Source of the DNA: a virus
Virus record (IMG/VR): IMGVR_UViG_3300027733_000042
Coordinates: 1-64,000 of that record
Reading direction: 5' to 3' (one strand)
Length of the DNA: 64,000 nt
The stretch's first letter is position 1, and every line of letters begins with the position of its first letter. Below are positions 252-37,840 of this stretch, piece after piece. The position numbers and the translations under genes were made by a program. The notes under the pieces were generated by a model that saw only the letters and a program-made list of their open reading frames with translations, was not told where the DNA came from and searched no databases.

Positions 252-1877
252 TTAGATCACAATTTTCTTCACCTTATCTAGGTGGTAATTTGGATTGAAC
301 TCGCTTTTCGCGATATCATCGAACATTGAATATCCGTAACCGTAGTAGAAGCGAACTTTATCTCCTGCGAGTTGAGTTGTTCCATATGCAGCTAAGTCTA
401 CTGAGTACACATATGGGCTACCACATGCTTTTACGTAACTCATATAAGAGCTATAACTTGATCCGCGATTACATTCGTTATCAGAAAGGATGAAAATACG
501 ATCATACTTACGTCCTGATCTTTGTGCTTCCATCCAAGCTGAAGCTAAACTTGTACCACCCATGCTTGATTTCATCGCTGATGCGATTGAGAATACGTCA
601 GAATTTGCATTCCATTTTACATATTCAGCATGTGAACCGAAACGGATTATATCTCCATTTGTTGCCTTTGCAATGGTTGCTGCGATTAACGCTGCTTTAT
701 CCATACAGGTGCTAGTATAGTTTGTCTTACGCATTGGGTCCAATACTCGAGTAGTCATAGATCCTGAGAAATCGACCATCACCAATGTTCTACCTGGAAG
801 CATCTCGGCCAAATTTGGAACAGCCGATTCATAACCTGCAAGTAATGCTTTCGCAACCTTACGGCTATCTACCGTGCTGAACTCAGCATTAGTTACTTCG
901 TGTGCTAAATCTAATTGGTATGGCATAACCTTACCTTTTCGGATCGATTCCGCATCTGAAAGTAGAGCACATAGTTTATCAACAGTTGTTGCTTTGCTTA
1001 CAGTTTTCAACACGTTTCTGATGTTTCGGATAGCTGCAAGAATTCCAAGTTTGTTCTCAGTTAAGAGGGCATCCCAGTTTTCTGCCTTTGCTTCTTTCAA
1101 CACTTCTGCGGCTTTTGCTTCATCGAGCTTTCCTTCTTTGACAGCTTTTGCAACTTCTTGACCAGCATCAGATTGAGCAACTTCCCATGTATCTGCTGAA
1201 ACGTTTTCACCTTTCATGATGGCAGAAAGAACTGCTACTTTTTCTCCGTTCACATCTGCAAGAGCTTTAGACTCCTTTGGATTTGGGTGAACTAGGTTGA
1301 TGACGTCGACTAGTGAACTTTTATATTTCAATAGTGAGTAAGAATCTAATTTTTCAAGTGCTTCTTTGAAACCTTTCTTCATTGCATTGGTCACGGCAGT
1401 CTTGTTCATTGCTGAGAAGCATGCGATAATTTCTGACATGTCGTCTGGTCTGAAAAGAGTTCCGCCTGACTGTGTTTTCTTATTCCACAATGAGTAGAAT
1501 CGTTTTGCCCAATCTTGTCCAGCACAGTGTGGTGCTAAGTAGCTTGCAGCTAAATGGTTTACTGAGCGCATTCCTTCGCCAACGCAACGTGAATACACGA
1601 TACATTGTGCAGTGAAGTACGCATCTTCTTTTGCACAGTCATCAATTAGAGTTTTAATCTCCTTCATCGTTTCAGTTTCTGAACGATAGAATTGGTTCTC
1701 TAATTTTAGAGTGTTTAACATAGTCAAGAGCTTCAACCACTTATCAAGTGAGTAAGCATCATTTCCTTGACGGTTCTTAGCGTCTGGTTTTGGCAGGTTT
1801 ACAGCCTCAACTAGCTTCACATCAGGTTGCATAGTAGCAAGTGTGTTGCGAAGATTCTTGTTTCTGAATTTTGTCAT
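252..1877 (-). CDS. rsr: Ro60/Rsr-like TROVE domain protein with C-terminal vWA domain
   Basis: N-terminal NRQGNDAYSL..LENQFY, GMRSVNHL, KYKSSLVDVINLVHP, TWE, LAAIRNIRN, KVMPYQ. vWA MIDAS DFSGSM, GGTSL, IFILSDNE, YSVDLAAYGT. Confidence 0.9.
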   Translation of the reverse strand: MTKFRNKNLRNTLATMQPDVKLVEAVNLPKPDAKNRQGNDAYSLDKWLKLLTMLNTLKLENQFYRSETETMKEIKTLIDDCAKEDAYFTAQCIVYSRCVGEGMRSVNHLAASYLAPHCAGQDWAKRFYSLWNKKTQSGGTLFRPDDMSEIIACFSAMNKTAVTNAMKKGFKEALEKLDSYSLLKYKSSLVDVINLVHPNPKESKALADVNGEKVAVLSAIMKGENVSADTWEVAQSDAGQEVAKAVKEGKLDEAKAAEVLKEAKAENWDALLTENKLGILAAIRNIRNVLKTVSKATTVDKLCALLSDAESIRKGKVMPYQLDLAHEVTNAEFSTVDSRKVAKALLAGYESAVPNLAEMLPGRTLVMVDFSGSMTTRVLDPMRKTNYTSTCMDKAALIAATIAKATNGDIIRFGSHAEYVKWNANSDVFSIASAMKSSMGGTSLASAWMEAQRSGRKYDRIFILSDNECNRGSSYSSYMSYVKACGSPYVYSVDLAAYGTTQLAGDKVRFYYGYGYSMFDDIAKSEFNPNYHLDKVKKIVI

Positions 1878-1909
1878 ACTTTTAGTACAAGGTTTTACTT
1901 TTTTTGTTT

Positions 1910-2299
1910 TTATTCTTGCTCACTCGAGTTTGCAAAGAAGTGTAATAGTGAACGGATATTTCTCTGTTCGCTAGTTAGGCGATCATAGTCGATTCTTCGT
2001 TCTTGAATCTCTTTTTGTATTGCAGCATTTTTATCTCTTAATTCAATAAGATCTAAATCGCTACTTGTAATCTCAATAAATGCTGCTTCTCTTGCATCTG
2101 CATTCGAATAGACTTTCTTTCCAGCGTCATCAACTTTTGAATTGATTTCACTTTTAAGTGTTGTCTCAGTATTTGAAATCTCGGTGGAGACTTCTTGAGA
2201 TTTTTGAGTTTTTCCAAGAATCTGTAATTGCACATCGGCAATTTCTTGCGGTAAACTCAATAACCTATTGCTTAATTCTGATAGTTTTTCGTTATTCAT
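1910..2299 (-). CDS. Coiled-coil hypothetical protein
   Basis: 129-aa ORF with heptad-like composition, directly upstream of the TROVE gene. Confidence 0.7.
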   Translation of the reverse strand: MNNEKLSELSNRLLSLPQEIADVQLQILGKTQKSQEVSTEISNTETTLKSEINSKVDDAGKKVYSNADAREAAFIEITSSDLDLIELRDKNAAIQKEIQERRIDYDRLTSEQRNIRSLLHFFANSSEQE

Positions 2300-2337
2300 A
2301 AAGTTATTATACTATGAATTTGAGCAATATTAAATTT

Positions 2338-2496
2338 TTTGTCAGAGAAAATTGCAAAAGCCGTTTTTCTTGTAAGCGAGCTACCACTGCTCTACCACGG
2401 CAAGTAATTTTTTAGTTGTGCCGTGGGATGGATTCGAACCACCGACCTCTTCCTTATAATGGATTTCGAAGTAACTTTTACGTTGCTACTGACAAA
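2338..2496 (-). ncRNA. YrlA-like Y RNA containing a circularly permuted tRNA module
   Basis: Outer stem TTTGTCAG/CTGACAAA. Inside, in order: T arm (GGTGG-TTCGAAT-CCATC), acceptor-like stem CCACGGCA/TGCCGTGG closed by a loop, then D arm (GAGC-AGTGGTA-GCTC). The anticodon position continues into the long outer stem. Adjacent to the TROVE gene. Confidence 0.85.
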
Positions 2497-2497
2497 G

Positions 2498-2571
2498 TTG
2501 CGATGGAGTGGATTCGAACCACTGATTTCAAGCTTATGAGGCTTGTGAGATGACCGCTTCTCTACCCCGCA
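2498..2571 (-). tRNA. tRNA-Met(CAT), initiator-like acceptor with an irregular 3' strand
   Basis: TGCGGGG..GAGA/TCTC D stem, CAAGC-CTCATAA-GCTTG, AGTGG-TTCGAAT-CCACT, 3' strand CCATCGCA (one extra nt). Confidence 0.8.
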
Positions 2572-2585
2572 ATATATTTTTTTCG

Positions 2586-2658
2586 TAGCGAAATCGGGAA
2601 TTGAACCCGAGACCTCAGGGTTATGAATCCTGCGCTCTACCGACTGAGCTACCTCGCC
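2586..2658 (-). tRNA. tRNA-Met(CAT), elongator type
   Basis: GGCGAGG/TTTCGCT acceptor, GCTC/GAGC D stem, CAGGA-TTCATAA-CCCTG, TCGGG-TTCAATT-CCCGA. Confidence 0.92.
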
Positions 2659-2709
2659 ATTTTTCTACCTAATCTCCAGCCTTCTGGTATAAGTACAAAA
2701 TATTCCCGG

Positions 2710-2783
2710 CGGTCCGTACGGGGCTCGAACCCGTGATCTCCTACGTGACAGGCAGGCGTCCACTCCATCTGGACTGACAGACC
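2710..2783 (-). tRNA. tRNA-Asp(GTC)
   Basis: GGTCTGT/ACGGACC acceptor, GTCC/GGAC D stem, CCTGC-CTGTCAC-GTAGG, ACGGG-TTCGAGC-CCCGT, G discriminator. Confidence 0.95.
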
Positions 2784-2791
2784 AATAAAAC

Positions 2792-2822
2792 AAAAAACCT
2801 CAACTTTATGGGTTGAGGTTTT
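2792..2822 (-). terminator. Intrinsic terminator (attenuator) immediately upstream of the tRNA/Y RNA/TROVE cluster
   Basis: AAAACCTCAAC-CCATAAA-GTTGAGGTTTTTTG hairpin with U tract on the minus strand, about 10 nt before tRNA-Asp. Confidence 0.85.
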
Positions 2823-2846
2823 CAGATTTGAAATATCTTATAAAAC

Positions 2847-2933
2847 TCAACTTCGATGCACACAATCACGATCTGTCCCTACCTCTAATGAAGGTATGAA
2901 ACTGCGTTCGATCATATTTTTGAAGATTTGCAT
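2847..2933 (-). CDS. Putative leader peptide MQIFKNMIERSFIPSLEVGTDRDCVHRS (28 aa)
   Basis: ATG about 22 nt after TATAAATA. Its TGA stop sits inside AGTTGAGTTTT, which is complementary to the terminator 5' arm. Confidence 0.6.
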   Translation of the reverse strand: MQIFKNMIERSFIPSLEVGTDRDCVHRS

Positions 2934-2955
2934 CTGCCGGTTGTTTATTTTTTAT

Positions 2956-2963
2956 TATTTATA
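2956..2963 (-). promoter_or_regulatory. T4-like late promoter TATAAATA
   Basis: Exact TATAAATA followed by ATAAAAAA, the same motif found before many structural genes in the window. Confidence 0.7.
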
Positions 2964-3012
2964 CTCAAAAACTAAAAAGATTTTAAGTTTATGTTAAACT
3001 TTTTTCTGGGTG

Positions 3013-3044
3013 TAAATATACTACTTATTTTTGAATCTAACAAT
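3013..3044 (-). promoter_or_regulatory. Bacteroidota-type/early promoter variant
   Basis: ATTG-TTAGATTCAAAAATAAGTAG-TATATTTA, a near copy of the promoter at 5682-5713. Confidence 0.55.
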
Positions 3045-3055
3045 TGAAGCAAAAA

Positions 3056-3175
3056 TTAATGTGAACCAGTAAAATATTTGTCACGTAAATATTGATTCCA
3101 GGCCTCGCGTTTATTACCATTGATAAAAAACCAGCCGATGTGTAATTCAAAAAATTTTACTATTTCATATTTCAT
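3056..3175 (-). CDS. Small hypothetical protein (39 aa, MKYEIVKFFELHIGWFF...)
   Basis: Read by eye. ATG-TAA ORF filling the intergenic gap on the coding strand. Confidence 0.5.
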   Translation of the reverse strand: MKYEIVKFFELHIGWFFINGNKREAWNQYLRDKYFTGSH

Positions 3176-3233
3176 AAAGTAATAATACTATTTAATCTAT
3201 AACAATAAAACTTTTTTGTTAAATTTTTATTAT

Positions 3234-3689
3234 TTATTGAGAGATTAGCTTTTCTTGCTGTCTTTCTTCAAAACTTAAGAGACCCTTACCGTATGTTTTG
3301 AATCGCGCGGAATATCTCTTCTTGACTCTTTCTGACACAGGTATCGGATTTCCCTCTTCATCAATTCTAACAAATTTCATGTTAGTATGTAGACCAACGT
3401 CTTGTTCTCCGGTGTAAACGTTATGCTTTCTGACCTCAATATAGAGAGTAACTGAGGTTGTTCCAAATTCTTTTACTGCAGCGTAGACTTTAATAATATT
3501 TCCGAGCTTAATTGGCATTTTAAAAATAAGTTCATCAATTTTAATAGTGACCATTCTTGGAGTATCACAGATCTGTGACGCATATGCTCCAGCACTCTGA
3601 TCGATTATTCCAAGAAGAGTTCCACCAAACATGTTTGAATGAACGCCGATGTCTGACGCTTTACAGATATATGTAGTTACTAATTCCAT
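3234..3689 (-). CDS. Acyl-CoA thioesterase (hotdog fold, YciA-like)
   Basis: SDIGVHSNMFGGTLLGIIDQSAG, RMVTIKIDELIFKMPI, FGTTSVTL, FVRIDEEGNPIPV. Confidence 0.9.
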   Translation of the reverse strand: MELVTTYICKASDIGVHSNMFGGTLLGIIDQSAGAYASQICDTPRMVTIKIDELIFKMPIKLGNIIKVYAAVKEFGTTSVTLYIEVRKHNVYTGEQDVGLHTNMKFVRIDEEGNPIPVSERVKKRYSARFKTYGKGLLSFEERQQEKLISQ

Positions 3690-3692
3690 TTA

Positions 3693-3842
3693 TTATGCAA
3701 GTAGATGATGAAGTATGACAATCTGTATTCCTAAAACGACAATACCAATTACTGTACGCACAAGCTCCATTCGATTCTTGTACATATCTAATTTTTCTTC
3801 TAGTGAAAGTTTACGACAATTATATAAATGGTTATTCTTCAT
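3693..3842 (-). CDS. Small membrane protein (49 aa)
   Basis: MKNNHLY...ELVRTVIGIVVLGIQIVILHHLLA, one C-terminal TM helix, tightly packed between neighbours. Confidence 0.6.
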   Translation of the reverse strand: MKNNHLYNCRKLSLEEKLDMYKNRMELVRTVIGIVVLGIQIVILHHLLA

Positions 3843-4062
3843 ATTAATTTGATAAAGGTGCCTTAATTTGTGGGTGAGATTGATGATTTTCTAATACAAA
3901 ATCCGTATTATTTAAGTGCGTTACTAATGAAATATCTTCTGATAAAGATTTGAAGAATGCTTCAGTTTTCATATGTTTTAGAGTTGGTAATGGATATGGT
4001 TCTCTTGTTCGTTTAGGTAATTTAGATATATATTCCATTCTTCATTAAGTTCATCTAATTTA

Positions 4063-4440
4063 TTAGCAATCAATCTTAATGAATGAGACGCCATGGATGC
4101 CTCTACCTTTAATACAAGCATATGTATTACTTGTAAAGGTAGACACAAAGATAGGCTCCAATACGTTCATAATCGCATGGTGAACTATCCTGTCTGGATA
4201 ATAAGGCAAGCTAGATATTACTCTTTCCTTACCTTCGAAAATTTTAAATGTCTTGTATTGAGAAGTGGTAAAAGTTTTAAACAAAAGAGCTTCATTCAAT
4301 TTAAGAATGTTTATGTCTTTTTCGTTATCATGTGATATAACACCACTCTTCTTTGTTTTACTTTTCCTAGCAATAACATCTGCTAATTCTAAATTGTCAA
4401 TTGAACAAACATCATTAAATAGATTCCCAACTCGCTTCAC
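4063..4440 (-). pseudogene. DGR-type reverse transcriptase, truncated to the N-terminal 125 aa
   Basis: MKRVGNLF..SIDNLELA..ARKSK, KERVISSLPYYPDRIVHHAIMNVLEPIF, TYACIKGRGIHG match DGR RT N-terminal motifs. It stops before the PIG/QG and YxDD motifs in all three frames. Confidence 0.88.
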
Positions 4441-4458
4441 AAAACTTTCTCAATCACA

Positions 4459-4902
4459 TTATAATTCTTCTGTTATATAATCTTTAAATAAATCTAGGAA
4501 ATTATTACCTAAATATTGCGCTTCTGCATCAGTACCAACATAAAGGGCCGATGGAACATACGTAATAGTATTGCCATAATGAGTACGATAATACGAAAAA
4601 CCTTTCTCTAAATCAAACCAGATTCTCCATTTCCTTTGATTTGAATCAGACCAATTAGGTATCCAATTGGTGAATGACCTCATAGCCTTAACGATTACTT
4701 TAAGCTTAATAAAAGCGATTTCTCCTTTGGTTAAGTTAATAAACTTGTTATTGAAGTTGGTTATATTTAACCCCAAGTATTCACAAGCAATTTCAAAAGA
4801 CTTGATGTCTTTATACGATTTGGGTTTGCTTGTCTGTCTAGCTATTTCAGCTAATTGGTCATCAGTTAAGGTGATTGACATACCATTGATATCGATTTTC
4901 AT
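4459..4902 (-). CDS. DGR target protein A
   Basis: Contains VR1 (4547-4602). Paralogue of 5111-5659 (KSF..AC..L, KLKVI.KA, W.P.W..SN..K...W, GFS.Y.T.Y....T.VPSAL). Confidence 0.88.
   Translation of the reverse strand: MKIDINGMSITLTDDQLAEIARQTSKPKSYKDIKSFEIACEYLGLNITNFNNKFINLTKGEIAFIKLKVIVKAMRSFTNWIPNWSDSNQRKWRIWFDLEKGFSYYRTHYGNTITYVPSALYVGTDAEAQYLGNNFLDLFKDYITEEL
4547..4602 (-). repeat. DGR variable repeat VR1
   Basis: 56 nt aligned to TR with 8 mismatches, all at TR adenines (minus strand). Confidence 0.92.
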
Positions 4903-7397: not shown

Positions 7398-8681
7398 TTA
7401 TATACTCCGAGTTTTTCCGTGGTTTATCTTGAAGACTGGAAAACGTAAAGAATTGTTACCATGCTGATCAGTAGTCTCCTCAAAATAAGTAACTGTTATG
7501 ATTGCATCAACTATTTTTTCAGGATGGTCATAATATTCACGGCGTTCATTTATTGAAAATCCACTGCCTACTTGAACTCGATTTCCTTTATGCTCAATAA
7601 TAACTGCACTTAGCATTGTCTCCTCGACTTCACGTTCATTTACGATAACTCGCTGTGGACCCATAATCGTTTCAACTACTCTATATTCGGCATCAAAAAA
7701 TTCTTTAAGCTTTAGCATATTTTTTGTGCGATCGCCTTCATAACCAACGTCACGACGTGCAATCAATCCTTCCCATCCACGTTCTTTTGCAGTCTGTCTA
7801 AAATCAAGTACATTCTGTTCAGTGTAGACTCTAGTTTGAGGTAATGTTGCAAGAATAGGTGAATCAGTAAAGATATGACGATGTCTTCTGTACTGTAATT
7901 TTTCTTCTCCGTGACCATTATCGAATTCTTCAAGTGTTAGGCAATCAAATACCCAATATCTAGGTTTTTGAATAGTATGATCTTTACGCTGAATCTGTTT
8001 CAGGATTCCCTGGAAGTCATCTGTGCCATCTTCATTCATCATGCATATTTCACCATCCAACACACAATCGTTTAACCCCAGGCGTTCTATTTCCTCTCTG
8101 ACTTTTCCAAGAGTTTCAAATTCTTTACCGTTTCTTGAAAAGAACTTAACACTACCATTTCTAATTATTACGATACACCGAACTCCATCTAATTTACGCG
8201 AAATATACCAAGTACCATCGGCCAGGTTGACCTTTTTAGCTTTGGTAAAATCATATGCAAGTGCGACATCAAATGTAGGAATTAATCCGGGAACAACTCG
8301 ATTAATCAGACTAGTTGTTGCTCTGGTTTCAAGGTTACGATCGATTATTTGGTAGATTAGATAATCGAATTTTGAATATTGTGCAATAAAATTATTAACA
8401 GCTTCAATTGCATTGTGACCAGTAAGATGACGATCATTTAAGTCGTCCAGTAAATAGAAAAGATTGTCATATACATCAACTGCTGCCGTAAGATCTGATC
8501 TCTTTTTAAGATTAGCAGAAGTTACACCATATTGTTTATATGGGTGATATGTGTATTTCAACACATTGCAGATGAATTCGTCACCTGAATACTTTTTAAG
8601 AATTTCGATTTTGTGATTTGTCGAATTTGAGGAGTTCATCTCAGCGATGAAATTTGCAAGATTCTCGAAACGATCAGTCAT
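7398..8681 (-). CDS. lig: ATP-dependent DNA ligase
   Basis: Motif I RKLDGVRC, SRNGKEF, VLDGEI, YWVFD, WEGLIAR, LKLK, OB fold VGSGFS, SLRFPVF. Confidence 0.96.
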   Translation of the reverse strand: MTDRFENLANFIAEMNSSNSTNHKIEILKKYSGDEFICNVLKYTYHPYKQYGVTSANLKKRSDLTAAVDVYDNLFYLLDDLNDRHLTGHNAIEAVNNFIAQYSKFDYLIYQIIDRNLETRATTSLINRVVPGLIPTFDVALAYDFTKAKKVNLADGTWYISRKLDGVRCIVIIRNGSVKFFSRNGKEFETLGKVREEIERLGLNDCVLDGEICMMNEDGTDDFQGILKQIQRKDHTIQKPRYWVFDCLTLEEFDNGHGEEKLQYRRHRHIFTDSPILATLPQTRVYTEQNVLDFRQTAKERGWEGLIARRDVGYEGDRTKNMLKLKEFFDAEYRVVETIMGPQRVIVNEREVEETMLSAVIIEHKGNRVQVGSGFSINERREYYDHPEKIVDAIITVTYFEETTDQHGNNSLRFPVFKINHGKTRSI

Positions 8682-37366: not shown

Positions 37367-37749
37367 GGGGTCGCCCGGTTTTGACAGGTAATTTAGTTCT
37401 TTGAAGTGCAGGCCGTGTTAGTATTGGAAACACGTTAATCACCTATATACATTTTAAATGACGAAAAGTCAACTTTCACTTTCGAAGACGCAATGTCTTT
37501 CGTTGGTGCTGATTACGCAGTATCTGCATAGTCACTAGGTCGCACTTACCTGTTTTAAAAAATGTGCACCATCAAGGCACTACGGATAGACGTGAGGCAT
37601 ACAGTAAGCCGTTATGAGAGTGAGAAGGAAACTCATTATAAACTGTCCAGAAAACCAAAAATTTTGTCTGTTTCGAAAAATAGACTAAGCTTGTGAATGA
37701 ATTTCATCGATCAGTTATTTGGACGAGGGTTCGATTCCCTCCGACTCCA
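37367..37749 (+). ncRNA. ssrA: tmRNA
   Basis: GGGGTCG/CGACTCC-A acceptor with a G3:U70 pair, 5' GGTTTTGAC, 3' GGAC-GAGGG-TTCGATT-CCCTC. Tag frame 37460-37531 reads DEKSTFTFEDAMSFVGADYAVSA*. Confidence 0.93.
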
Positions 37750-37840
37750 CGGGAATACGTCTAAGTGGTGAATTGAGAAAGAAATATAAAACTTTCTCGC
37801 CATTTTGATGTATAAATAATAAAAAAATACAAATATTACT

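Follow-up and report, generated by a model that had tools for sequence, protein, structure and literature searches.

A candidate leader-peptide transcription attenuator heading a tRNA, Y-like RNA and Ro60 operon in a lake phage

Organization of the locus

The window analyzed in this work comprises 64,000 nucleotides (positions 1 to 64,000) of a 90.8-kb IMG/VR virus record (IMGVR_UViG_3300027733_000042). CheckV estimates the record to be ~36% complete, which at this length implies that it derives from a large phage. The element studied here is located on the minus strand and consists of a short leader open reading frame (ORF), preceded by a conserved promoter-like block and followed by an intrinsic terminator, beyond which lie three tRNA genes, a Y RNA-like candidate, a gene of unassigned family and a Ro60 gene (Table 1). 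The tRNA-Asp gene starts 8 nt past the tail of the terminator, a gap too small for a promoter, and our terminator scan predicted no further minus-strand terminator below position 2791, i.e. between the terminator of the leader and Ro60. Tblastn searches with the Ro60 sequence revealed no close cultured relative, the best match showing 30% identity, and a blastn search of positions 2300–3250 against isolated phages returned tRNA matches only. The 129-aa ORF gave no Pfam match above threshold. The candidate Y RNA, which resembles YrlA, a Y RNA with a tRNA-like module, scores 24.1 bits (E-value 0.021) against the Rfam model, whose gathering score is 69, and is given here as context. This stretch, located between the tRNAs and Ro60 and with a candidate permuted tRNA-like module, is conserved at the blastn level beside Ro60 in at least nine related loci.

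Table 1. Features of the leader and of the genes that follow it, listed in the direction of transcription.
Feature	Position	Strand	Evidence
Promoter-like conserved block, TTAAAA-17 nt-TATAAAT (putative promoter)	2957-2987	-	conservation
Leader ORF, 28 codons including stop; ATG at 2933, TGA at 2849-2847	2847-2933	-	ORF call and orthologs
Segment 2, candidate antiterminator strand AGTTGAGTTTT; holds the TGA and copies the terminator 3' arm	2842-2852	-	
Intrinsic terminator and T-run (to 2785)	2785-2823	-	hairpin/T-run scan, folding
Terminator parts	5' arm (segment 3) 2823-2812; loop 2811-2805; 3' arm (segment 4) 2804-2793		
tRNA-Asp(GTC), first gene behind the terminator (predicted to be gated)	2708-2783	-	ARAGORN; Rfam tRNA, 50.7 bits
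tRNA-Met(CAT)	2585-2658	-	ARAGORN; Rfam, 64.7 bits
tRNA-Met(CAT), second copy	2497-2571	-	ARAGORN; Rfam, 52.5 bits
YrlA-like candidate	2373-2451	-	Rfam RF02553, sub-threshold
129-aa ORF, family unassigned	1910-2299	-	ORF call
Ro60 gene (TROVE and vWA)	252-1877	-	Pfam TROVE 1.5e-8, vWA_Ro60 2.5e-6

In the promoter-like region (TTAAAA at 2986–2981, TATAAAT at 2963–2957) the AGTATAAATAA block and the A-rich hexamer upstream of it are kept in all orthologs of the element, whereas the flanks diverge, and we infer a promoter role. The TTAAAA-N17-TATAAAT arrangement gave no match in a strict sigma-70 scan, nor does it contain a clean Bacteroidota -7 box. In several related leaders (e.g. L003:~940–1010, L004:~7590–7640, L014, L015 and L032) a TAnnTTTG box of the Bacteroidota -7 type is found ~25–60 nt before the ATG, with a GATATATAA motif nearer the ATG than the box, where the group of the window has TTAAAA-N17-TATAAAT instead. 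These boxes hint at a Bacteroidota host.

Positions 1500–4500 were also compared with one lake-water metatranscriptome run (0.06 of the words). A contig of 231 nt, 100% identical to window positions 1769–1999, spans the junction of the 129-aa gene and Ro60. It shows that a near-identical phage is present in lake water, and is no proof of transcription. The other matches in this region are tRNA-Met look-alikes from other organisms. The leader and terminator yielded no contig and no transcript ends in this one run, a result that says nothing about expression of the leader.

Leader, terminator and candidate antiterminator in the window

An earlier reading of the window, made from the sequence alone, had proposed that the stop codon of the leader ORF lies within an 11-nt segment able to pair with the 5' arm of the terminator. 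Our analysis confirmed both the overlap with AGTTGAGTTTT (2852–2842) and its complementarity to AAAACCTCAAC (2822–2812), and a recount agreed with the composition given there, namely 28 codons with 17 amino-acid types and 23 distinct codons, including two Met and two Asp (GAT). The terminator hairpin (2823–2793) is the sole terminator-like site in 1800–3800, and has 12 pairs (4 of them G-C), a 7-nt loop and a T-rich tail. The TGA is 21 nt from the hairpin, and the spacer between AGTTGAGTTTT and the hairpin is 19 nt. In the predicted antiterminator duplex the 6-bp GTTGAG:CTCAAC helix is extended, past a bulged C, by 3–4 A-U pairs; its stability is -8.5 kcal/mol versus -14.2 kcal/mol for the terminator hairpin, a gap of 5.7 kcal/mol, and it is missing from the full-length minimum free energy (MFE) fold. 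With so large a deficit in stability, an effect of the antiterminator in this unit could only be a kinetic one.

Taken by itself this leader is the weakest of its family, and in the sequence of the window alone the pairing is not above chance: the most stable duplex that the 5' arm of the terminator can form with upstream sequence has z = -0.87, and is matched by 23 of 100 dinucleotide shuffles. What makes the pairing credible is that five orthologs keep GTTGAG, and the position of the stop codon within it, without any change, and that it co-varies with the terminator in homologous units (see below). RNAduplex picked another site, AGAGGTAGGG..., in the middle of the ORF, as the best match of an extended 5' arm (in the ortholog from contig G001 the mid-ORF pick is GTTGAGGT). 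As the G005 group lacks this site, while the stop-overlapping GTTGAG is invariant, we did not take it for the main antiterminator.

To model the effect of translation, the nascent RNA was folded up to the terminator loop, with the ribosome represented as a 29-nt footprint. The probability of pairing between segments 2 and 3 is 0.74–0.99 when the RNA is free or when the footprint is placed at the Asp, Met or Ile (ATA) codons, and falls to 0 with the footprint on the stop codon, in agreement with the masking behavior that the sequence-only reading had predicted. Across the family, the median probability of the 5' arm being paired upstream is 0.99, and drops to 0.58 once a ribosome occupies the stop codon (Wilcoxon p = 6e-4). 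We found no preemptor (1:2) helix: segment 2 pairs with segment 3 in the ribosome-free RNA, and the hairpin formed by the ORF does not sequester segment 2. The leader thus departs from the classical four-segment design in having three, and in the absence of translation the antiterminator would form as well.

Orthologs and a positional homolog

Searches with Ro60 as a query identified 34 related loci, in which Ro60 is embedded in large tRNA arrays. The leader element itself could be aligned by blastn only in G001 (73% identity). By searching the whole records of the relatives and scanning viral contigs for the pattern, we found further orthologs in G005, G007, G008, c1981 and c4316, which have the same promoter block and terminator with the same spacing, and a strongly diverged interior. 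All six contigs retain the same ATG, the same reading frame, the stop codon within GTTGAG, and the terminator. The ORF has 28 or 27 codons; the shorter form, present in G005, G007, G008 and c1981, results from a 3-nt indel that preserves the frame. AGTTGAG, with the TGA inside, is invariant in the five aligned orthologs, while the ORF interior is ~40% diverged. The leader begins with xKNMI, which resembles the MKNxxNI start common to other leaders. In the RNAalifold consensus of the five orthologs the terminator alone is kept, and the ORF part contains many broken pairs (covariation term +2.04); the lack of a supported helix in the ORF favors a translated frame and disfavors a structured RNA. 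The terminator (2785–2823) is 95–100% identical across lineages, compared with ~40–75% for the adjoining leader ORF, a degree of conservation that is unusually high for an intrinsic terminator, and exceeds what the alternative pairing by itself would obviously need.

Because the columns of segments 2, 3 and 4 are invariant in the ortholog group, covariation cannot be demonstrated within it. A positional homolog in G002 and G003, which heads a Glu-Asp-Met-Met-Ro60 array, is more informative: its terminator arms are CTCGG/CCGAG in place of CTCAAC/GTTGAG, and the upstream copy at the stop codon reads CCGAG-TTTT; the bulged C is again present, and the TAAGATA spacer is similar. This three-way compensatory change identifies AGTTGAGTTTT as the relevant partner of the 5' arm in the window. 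The covariation that the sequence-only reading had suggested looking for in homologs is found as a joint change of both arms and the copy in G002/G003, while the invariant ortholog group contributes no count of covarying pairs. G001 and G006 also contain terminators with different stems (CTCGAAC/GTTCGAG and CTCGAA/TTCGAG) directly before tRNA-Val and tRNA-Phe. Each is preceded by an ORF of 40–42 codons, the last codons of which copy the new 3' arm, as GTTCGA, which pairs with CTCGAAC, and as a 10-nt exact copy, ATTCGAGGTT.

The orthologs differ in what follows them. Asp and an internal Met are found in the leader only where tRNA-Asp, tRNA-Met and tRNA-Met directly follow, i.e. in the window and in G001, while leaders of the G005 type (...IEAGEGR...) precede Glu, Met, Arg, Gly and Ala tRNAs. 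In G005, G007, c1981 and c4316 the first predicted tRNA is located from tens to ~260 nt after the terminator, and this spacer may contain an internal promoter.

Recurrence of the architecture in related phages

We surveyed ~40 kb around the tRNA arrays of 22 related contigs with our own finder of hairpins followed by T-runs and with ARAGORN, counting as units the distinct terminators that lie at most 45 nt before a tRNA, and as leaders the ATG-initiated ORFs of at least 19 codons that end 10–40 nt before the hairpin. A leader ORF precedes 20 of the 25 tRNA-proximal terminators, compared with 2.8 ± 1.6 in shuffled upstream sequence (maximum 10 of 500), and the stop-to-hairpin distance clusters at 19–23 nt across the units. 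Complementarity between the upstream sequence and the terminator 5' arm has a median z of -2.77 in 21 leader units, 57% of them below -2, versus a median of -0.07 and 3% below -2 for 120 other terminators of the same contigs (Mann-Whitney p = 4.7e-8). The complementary segment usually lies at about -26 to +12 nt from the first base of the stop codon, i.e. under a terminating ribosome.

Leader composition and the downstream tRNAs

The sequence-only reading had described the leader as sampling most of the tRNA pool. The family does not bear this out: its leaders mirror the tRNAs behind their own terminators. A count of 23 distinct codons among 28 is usual for any short ORF. The description would be better worded as leaders matched to their own downstream tRNAs, with the leader of the window matched only weakly. 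As a score we took the share of residues in a leader for which the downstream run contains a tRNA of the same amino acid, centered per tRNA set, with one representative per ortholog cluster. The observed sums of the match are 1.88 for 13 units (strict runs), 2.73 for 15 units and 3.02 for 20 units, compared with 0 ± 0.37 to 0.51 for permuted pairings; in no case among 100,000 permutations was the observed value attained. A leader ranks first for its own tRNA set in 8–9 units. As the leader/array pairs are partly homologous between phages, the independent events correspond to approximately nine distinct types of tRNA set rather than to twenty.

Individual leaders illustrate the match. The MINISNILPSSLRPSIRRS leader precedes tRNAs for Ser, Arg, Pro, Ile, Met and Leu, the MKMLLCHISMSLSHSMSGRLEL leader those for Cys, Met, His, Ser, Leu and Leu, and a leader with the run TTTSSSTSTSSC those for Ser, Ser, Thr and Cys. 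In a further case 18 tRNAs of 16 types, none of them for Leu, follow a leader of 33 codons whose peptide contains 19 amino-acid types, including each of the 16 but not Leu. The choice of codons also fits the anticodons; TTA and TTG, for instance, are present where Leu-taa and Leu-caa follow. In the leader of the window, Asp and Met make up 3 of the 27 residues after Met1 (two Asp and one internal Met), a match of 0.11 versus a mean of 0.06 for the other leaders, which ranks 2 of 13 and is not significant alone. With the tRNA set extended according to the order found after Ro60 in G001 (Cys, Gly, Met, Glu, His) the match is 0.30, with a suggestive rank of 3 of 21.

Proposed mechanism

We propose that the element is a ribosome-mediated leader-peptide transcription attenuator, which would head a phage RNA operon composed of tRNA-Asp, two tRNA-Met(CAT), the YrlA-like RNA, the 129-aa gene and Ro60, and we assign this reading a probability of about 0.62. 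Transcription would start near position 2955, and the 28-codon leader would be translated while the RNA polymerase moves ahead. If decoding is fast, the ribosome would arrive at the TGA, 21 nt before the hairpin, and cover AGTTGAGTTTT; the arms of the terminator could then pair, and transcription would end at the T-run, 8 nt before tRNA-Asp. A ribosome lagging or stalled in the leader would leave AGTTGAGTTTT free to pair with the 5' arm as soon as the latter emerges, and the antiterminator, weak as it is, could delay the folding of the terminator long enough for the polymerase to read through into the tRNAs and the Ro60 module. The lake phage probably makes these RNAs only when ribosomes are slowed. 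Across the family, the tRNAs encoded past the terminator decode the codons of the leader, so that the circuit would amount to negative feedback on the supply of those very tRNAs. The same direction of response, with termination caused by a ribosome at the stop codon and read-through by an upstream stall, had been put forward in the sequence-only reading. The mechanism draws comparative support from the conservation of the ORF, its stop codon and the terminator, from the recurrence of the architecture and from the enrichment of complementary segments, though not from the pairing in the single window, and the masking folds agree with it. Points against it are the weak antiterminator and modest codon match of this leader, the lack of a preemptor, the spacer before the first tRNA in some orthologs, and the N-terminal motif that the leaders share.

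Several other explanations have to be weighed against attenuation. The ORF could be a free-standing small-protein gene, encoding a 28-aa peptide of an MKNxxNI-type family and equipped with its own promoter and a leaky ordinary terminator, in which case the GTTGAG copy would be non-regulatory, and the tRNAs would be produced by constitutive read-through or from upstream transcripts. The ORF is indeed conserved, its N-terminal motif is common to otherwise unrelated leaders, which may indicate a peptide with a function of its own, the G005 group has a spacer before the next tRNA, and the antiterminator of the window is weak. We nevertheless regard this explanation as unlikely, because the peptide interiors are poorly conserved even in close orthologs, and yet track the amino acids of the downstream tRNAs. 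Moreover, the stop-to-hairpin distance is tightly fixed, and leader ORFs repeatedly close with a stretch that matches the terminator arm and co-varies with different terminators. An ordinary gene end would have no need of such a stretch; z is below -2 in 57% of leader units and in only 3% of other terminators.

A structured non-coding RNA, either a small RNA with its own terminator, such as another Y-like RNA serving Ro60, or a switch that works without translation under the control of a ligand or protein, would account for the long bulged hairpin, for the folding z-score of -3.25 of the whole stretch relative to shuffles, and for the Ro60/YrlA neighborhood. The z-score, however, is due to the inclusion of the terminator, and without it amounts to -1.08. 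Self-pairings within the ORF that the sequence-only reading had listed (GATGCA/TGCATC and others) do exist and appear in the MFE fold, but they are no better than those of shuffles once the terminator is left out, and the positive covariation term and broken pairs of the five-ortholog consensus indicate that they are not conserved; these two results also count against the purely structural switch that had been offered as an alternative. In addition, the 3-nt indel keeps the frame, and an Rfam scan of the element at E-values up to 10 returned only sub-threshold noise (rnk leaders, GlmZ and miRNAs), with no family near its threshold, the best matches being to rnk leaders with E-values of 0.68 and 4.3. 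No T-box (RF00230) was detected at the gathering threshold in the window, or at E-values up to 10 in 1850–3300. Positions 2792–2963 gave no match to the YrlA model, the sole YrlA-like match being that at 2451–2373, and the consensus fold of the leader is without supported helices. We consider a structured RNA of either kind very improbable. Finally, the hairpin might be the terminator of the upstream gene for a 4HBT thioesterase (3689–3234), with the ORF as a chance frame, an idea favored by the fact that no other minus-strand terminator is predicted between 3234 and 2823. To our minds it is hardly tenable, given that the hairpin lies 410 nt past the thioesterase gene with the conserved promoter-like block and the ORF in between, and that the module of ORF and terminator recurs behind different upstream genes.

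Relationship to known regulatory systems

Leader-peptide attenuators of amino-acid operons, the nearest known systems, include trpL, hisL, pheL and leuL, as well as the multivalent thrL and ilvL of enterobacteria. The element described here shares with them a short leader ORF (its translation is predicted in our case), a terminator just before the regulated genes, an alternative helix that uses a strand of the terminator, the choice of helix by ribosome position (likewise predicted here), and leader codons cognate to the regulated product, which in our case applies at the level of the family. It differs in that the regulated genes would be tRNAs together with a Y-like RNA and Ro60, so that the quantity sensed would be the regulated product itself. 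It also comprises three segments and no preemptor, and its antiterminator strand overlaps or precedes the stop codon, whereas theirs follows it. Unlike the classical leaders, that of the window has no run of a single codon, and the system is phage-borne, with several units per genome.

In published work, the nearest biological parallel that we found is the long accessory tRNA array of Anabaena sp. PCC 7120, where the trn operon is silent by default, induced when translation is impaired, and co-regulated with rtcB (PMC8421152, PMC10272220). Its regulation acts on the promoter and involves direct repeats together with the repressor TrcR (PMC8421152, PMC10272220), and the words "attenuation", "leader" and "terminator" occur in neither of the two papers. 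The co-regulation of the RNA-repair gene rtcB with that array resembles the association of Ro60 and YrlA with the tRNAs in our phage.

T-boxes have in common with the proposed attenuator the coupling of tRNA status to read-through of a terminator; they recognize uncharged tRNA by direct binding, work without translation, and regulate synthetase or amino-acid genes. Attenuators with antibiotic-responsive, ribosome-stalling leaders respond to drug-bound ribosomes and control resistance proteins. They are similar in that a short leader ORF senses slowed ribosomes and relieves a terminator, but the leaders described here differ in being matched to specific downstream tRNAs. In the literature searched, we came across no account of tRNA genes being controlled by leader-peptide attenuation.

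Functional implications

Control of tRNA genes is generally ascribed to promoters, and what prompts phages to express tRNAs of their own, and when, has yet to be explained. If our interpretation is true, a trp-style decoding test placed before tRNA genes would close a feedback loop directly, the regulated product and the sensed molecule being one and the same, and it would explain the partition of the tRNA arrays of large phages into separately controlled blocks. What the window appears to add is a gated unit that holds Ro60 and a YrlA-like RNA alongside tRNAs. This would link tRNA supply to the phage Ro60/Y-RNA module and hint at when this poorly understood ribonucleoprotein is needed. The family also supplies natural variants, with different stems and codon sets, which can be used as controls.

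As a tentative extension, in which we have little confidence, the leader units could serve as sensors of a phage translation-rescue circuit. Depletion or cleavage of tRNAs, e.g. by host anticodon nucleases or in the course of phage shut-off of host RNA, would stall ribosomes on the matching leader and thereby trigger transcription of replacement tRNAs, and in the unit of the window a Ro60/YrlA module for RNA quality control would be co-induced by the same decoding test.

Other RNA genes of the phage group

The genome that carries the tRNAs, Ro60 and the leader also encodes a tmRNA (window 37367–37752, plus strand; Rfam 94 bits), the tag peptide of which, according to ARAGORN, ends in ...YAVSA. 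Just past the Ro60 stop codon, at 136–238 on the minus strand, there is a 103-nt tRNA-like gene, which scores 32 bits against the Rfam tRNA model, barely above threshold. ARAGORN did not report this gene, and its sequence cannot be aligned with the suppressor/Cys scaffold that occupies this position in relatives. That scaffold, found directly 3' of Ro60 (L003:5835–5906, L031:5915–5986, L008:5950–6022, L002:5916–5990, L006:5835–5908), has anticodons that vary by relative, namely tta (ochre suppressor), tca (opal suppressor), gca (Cys) or an 8-nt loop read as "ttag", and several relatives carry a tRNA(cta) as well. This pattern suggests that the anticodon has switched between a Cys and a suppressor identity, and that stop codons may be recoded in this group of phages.
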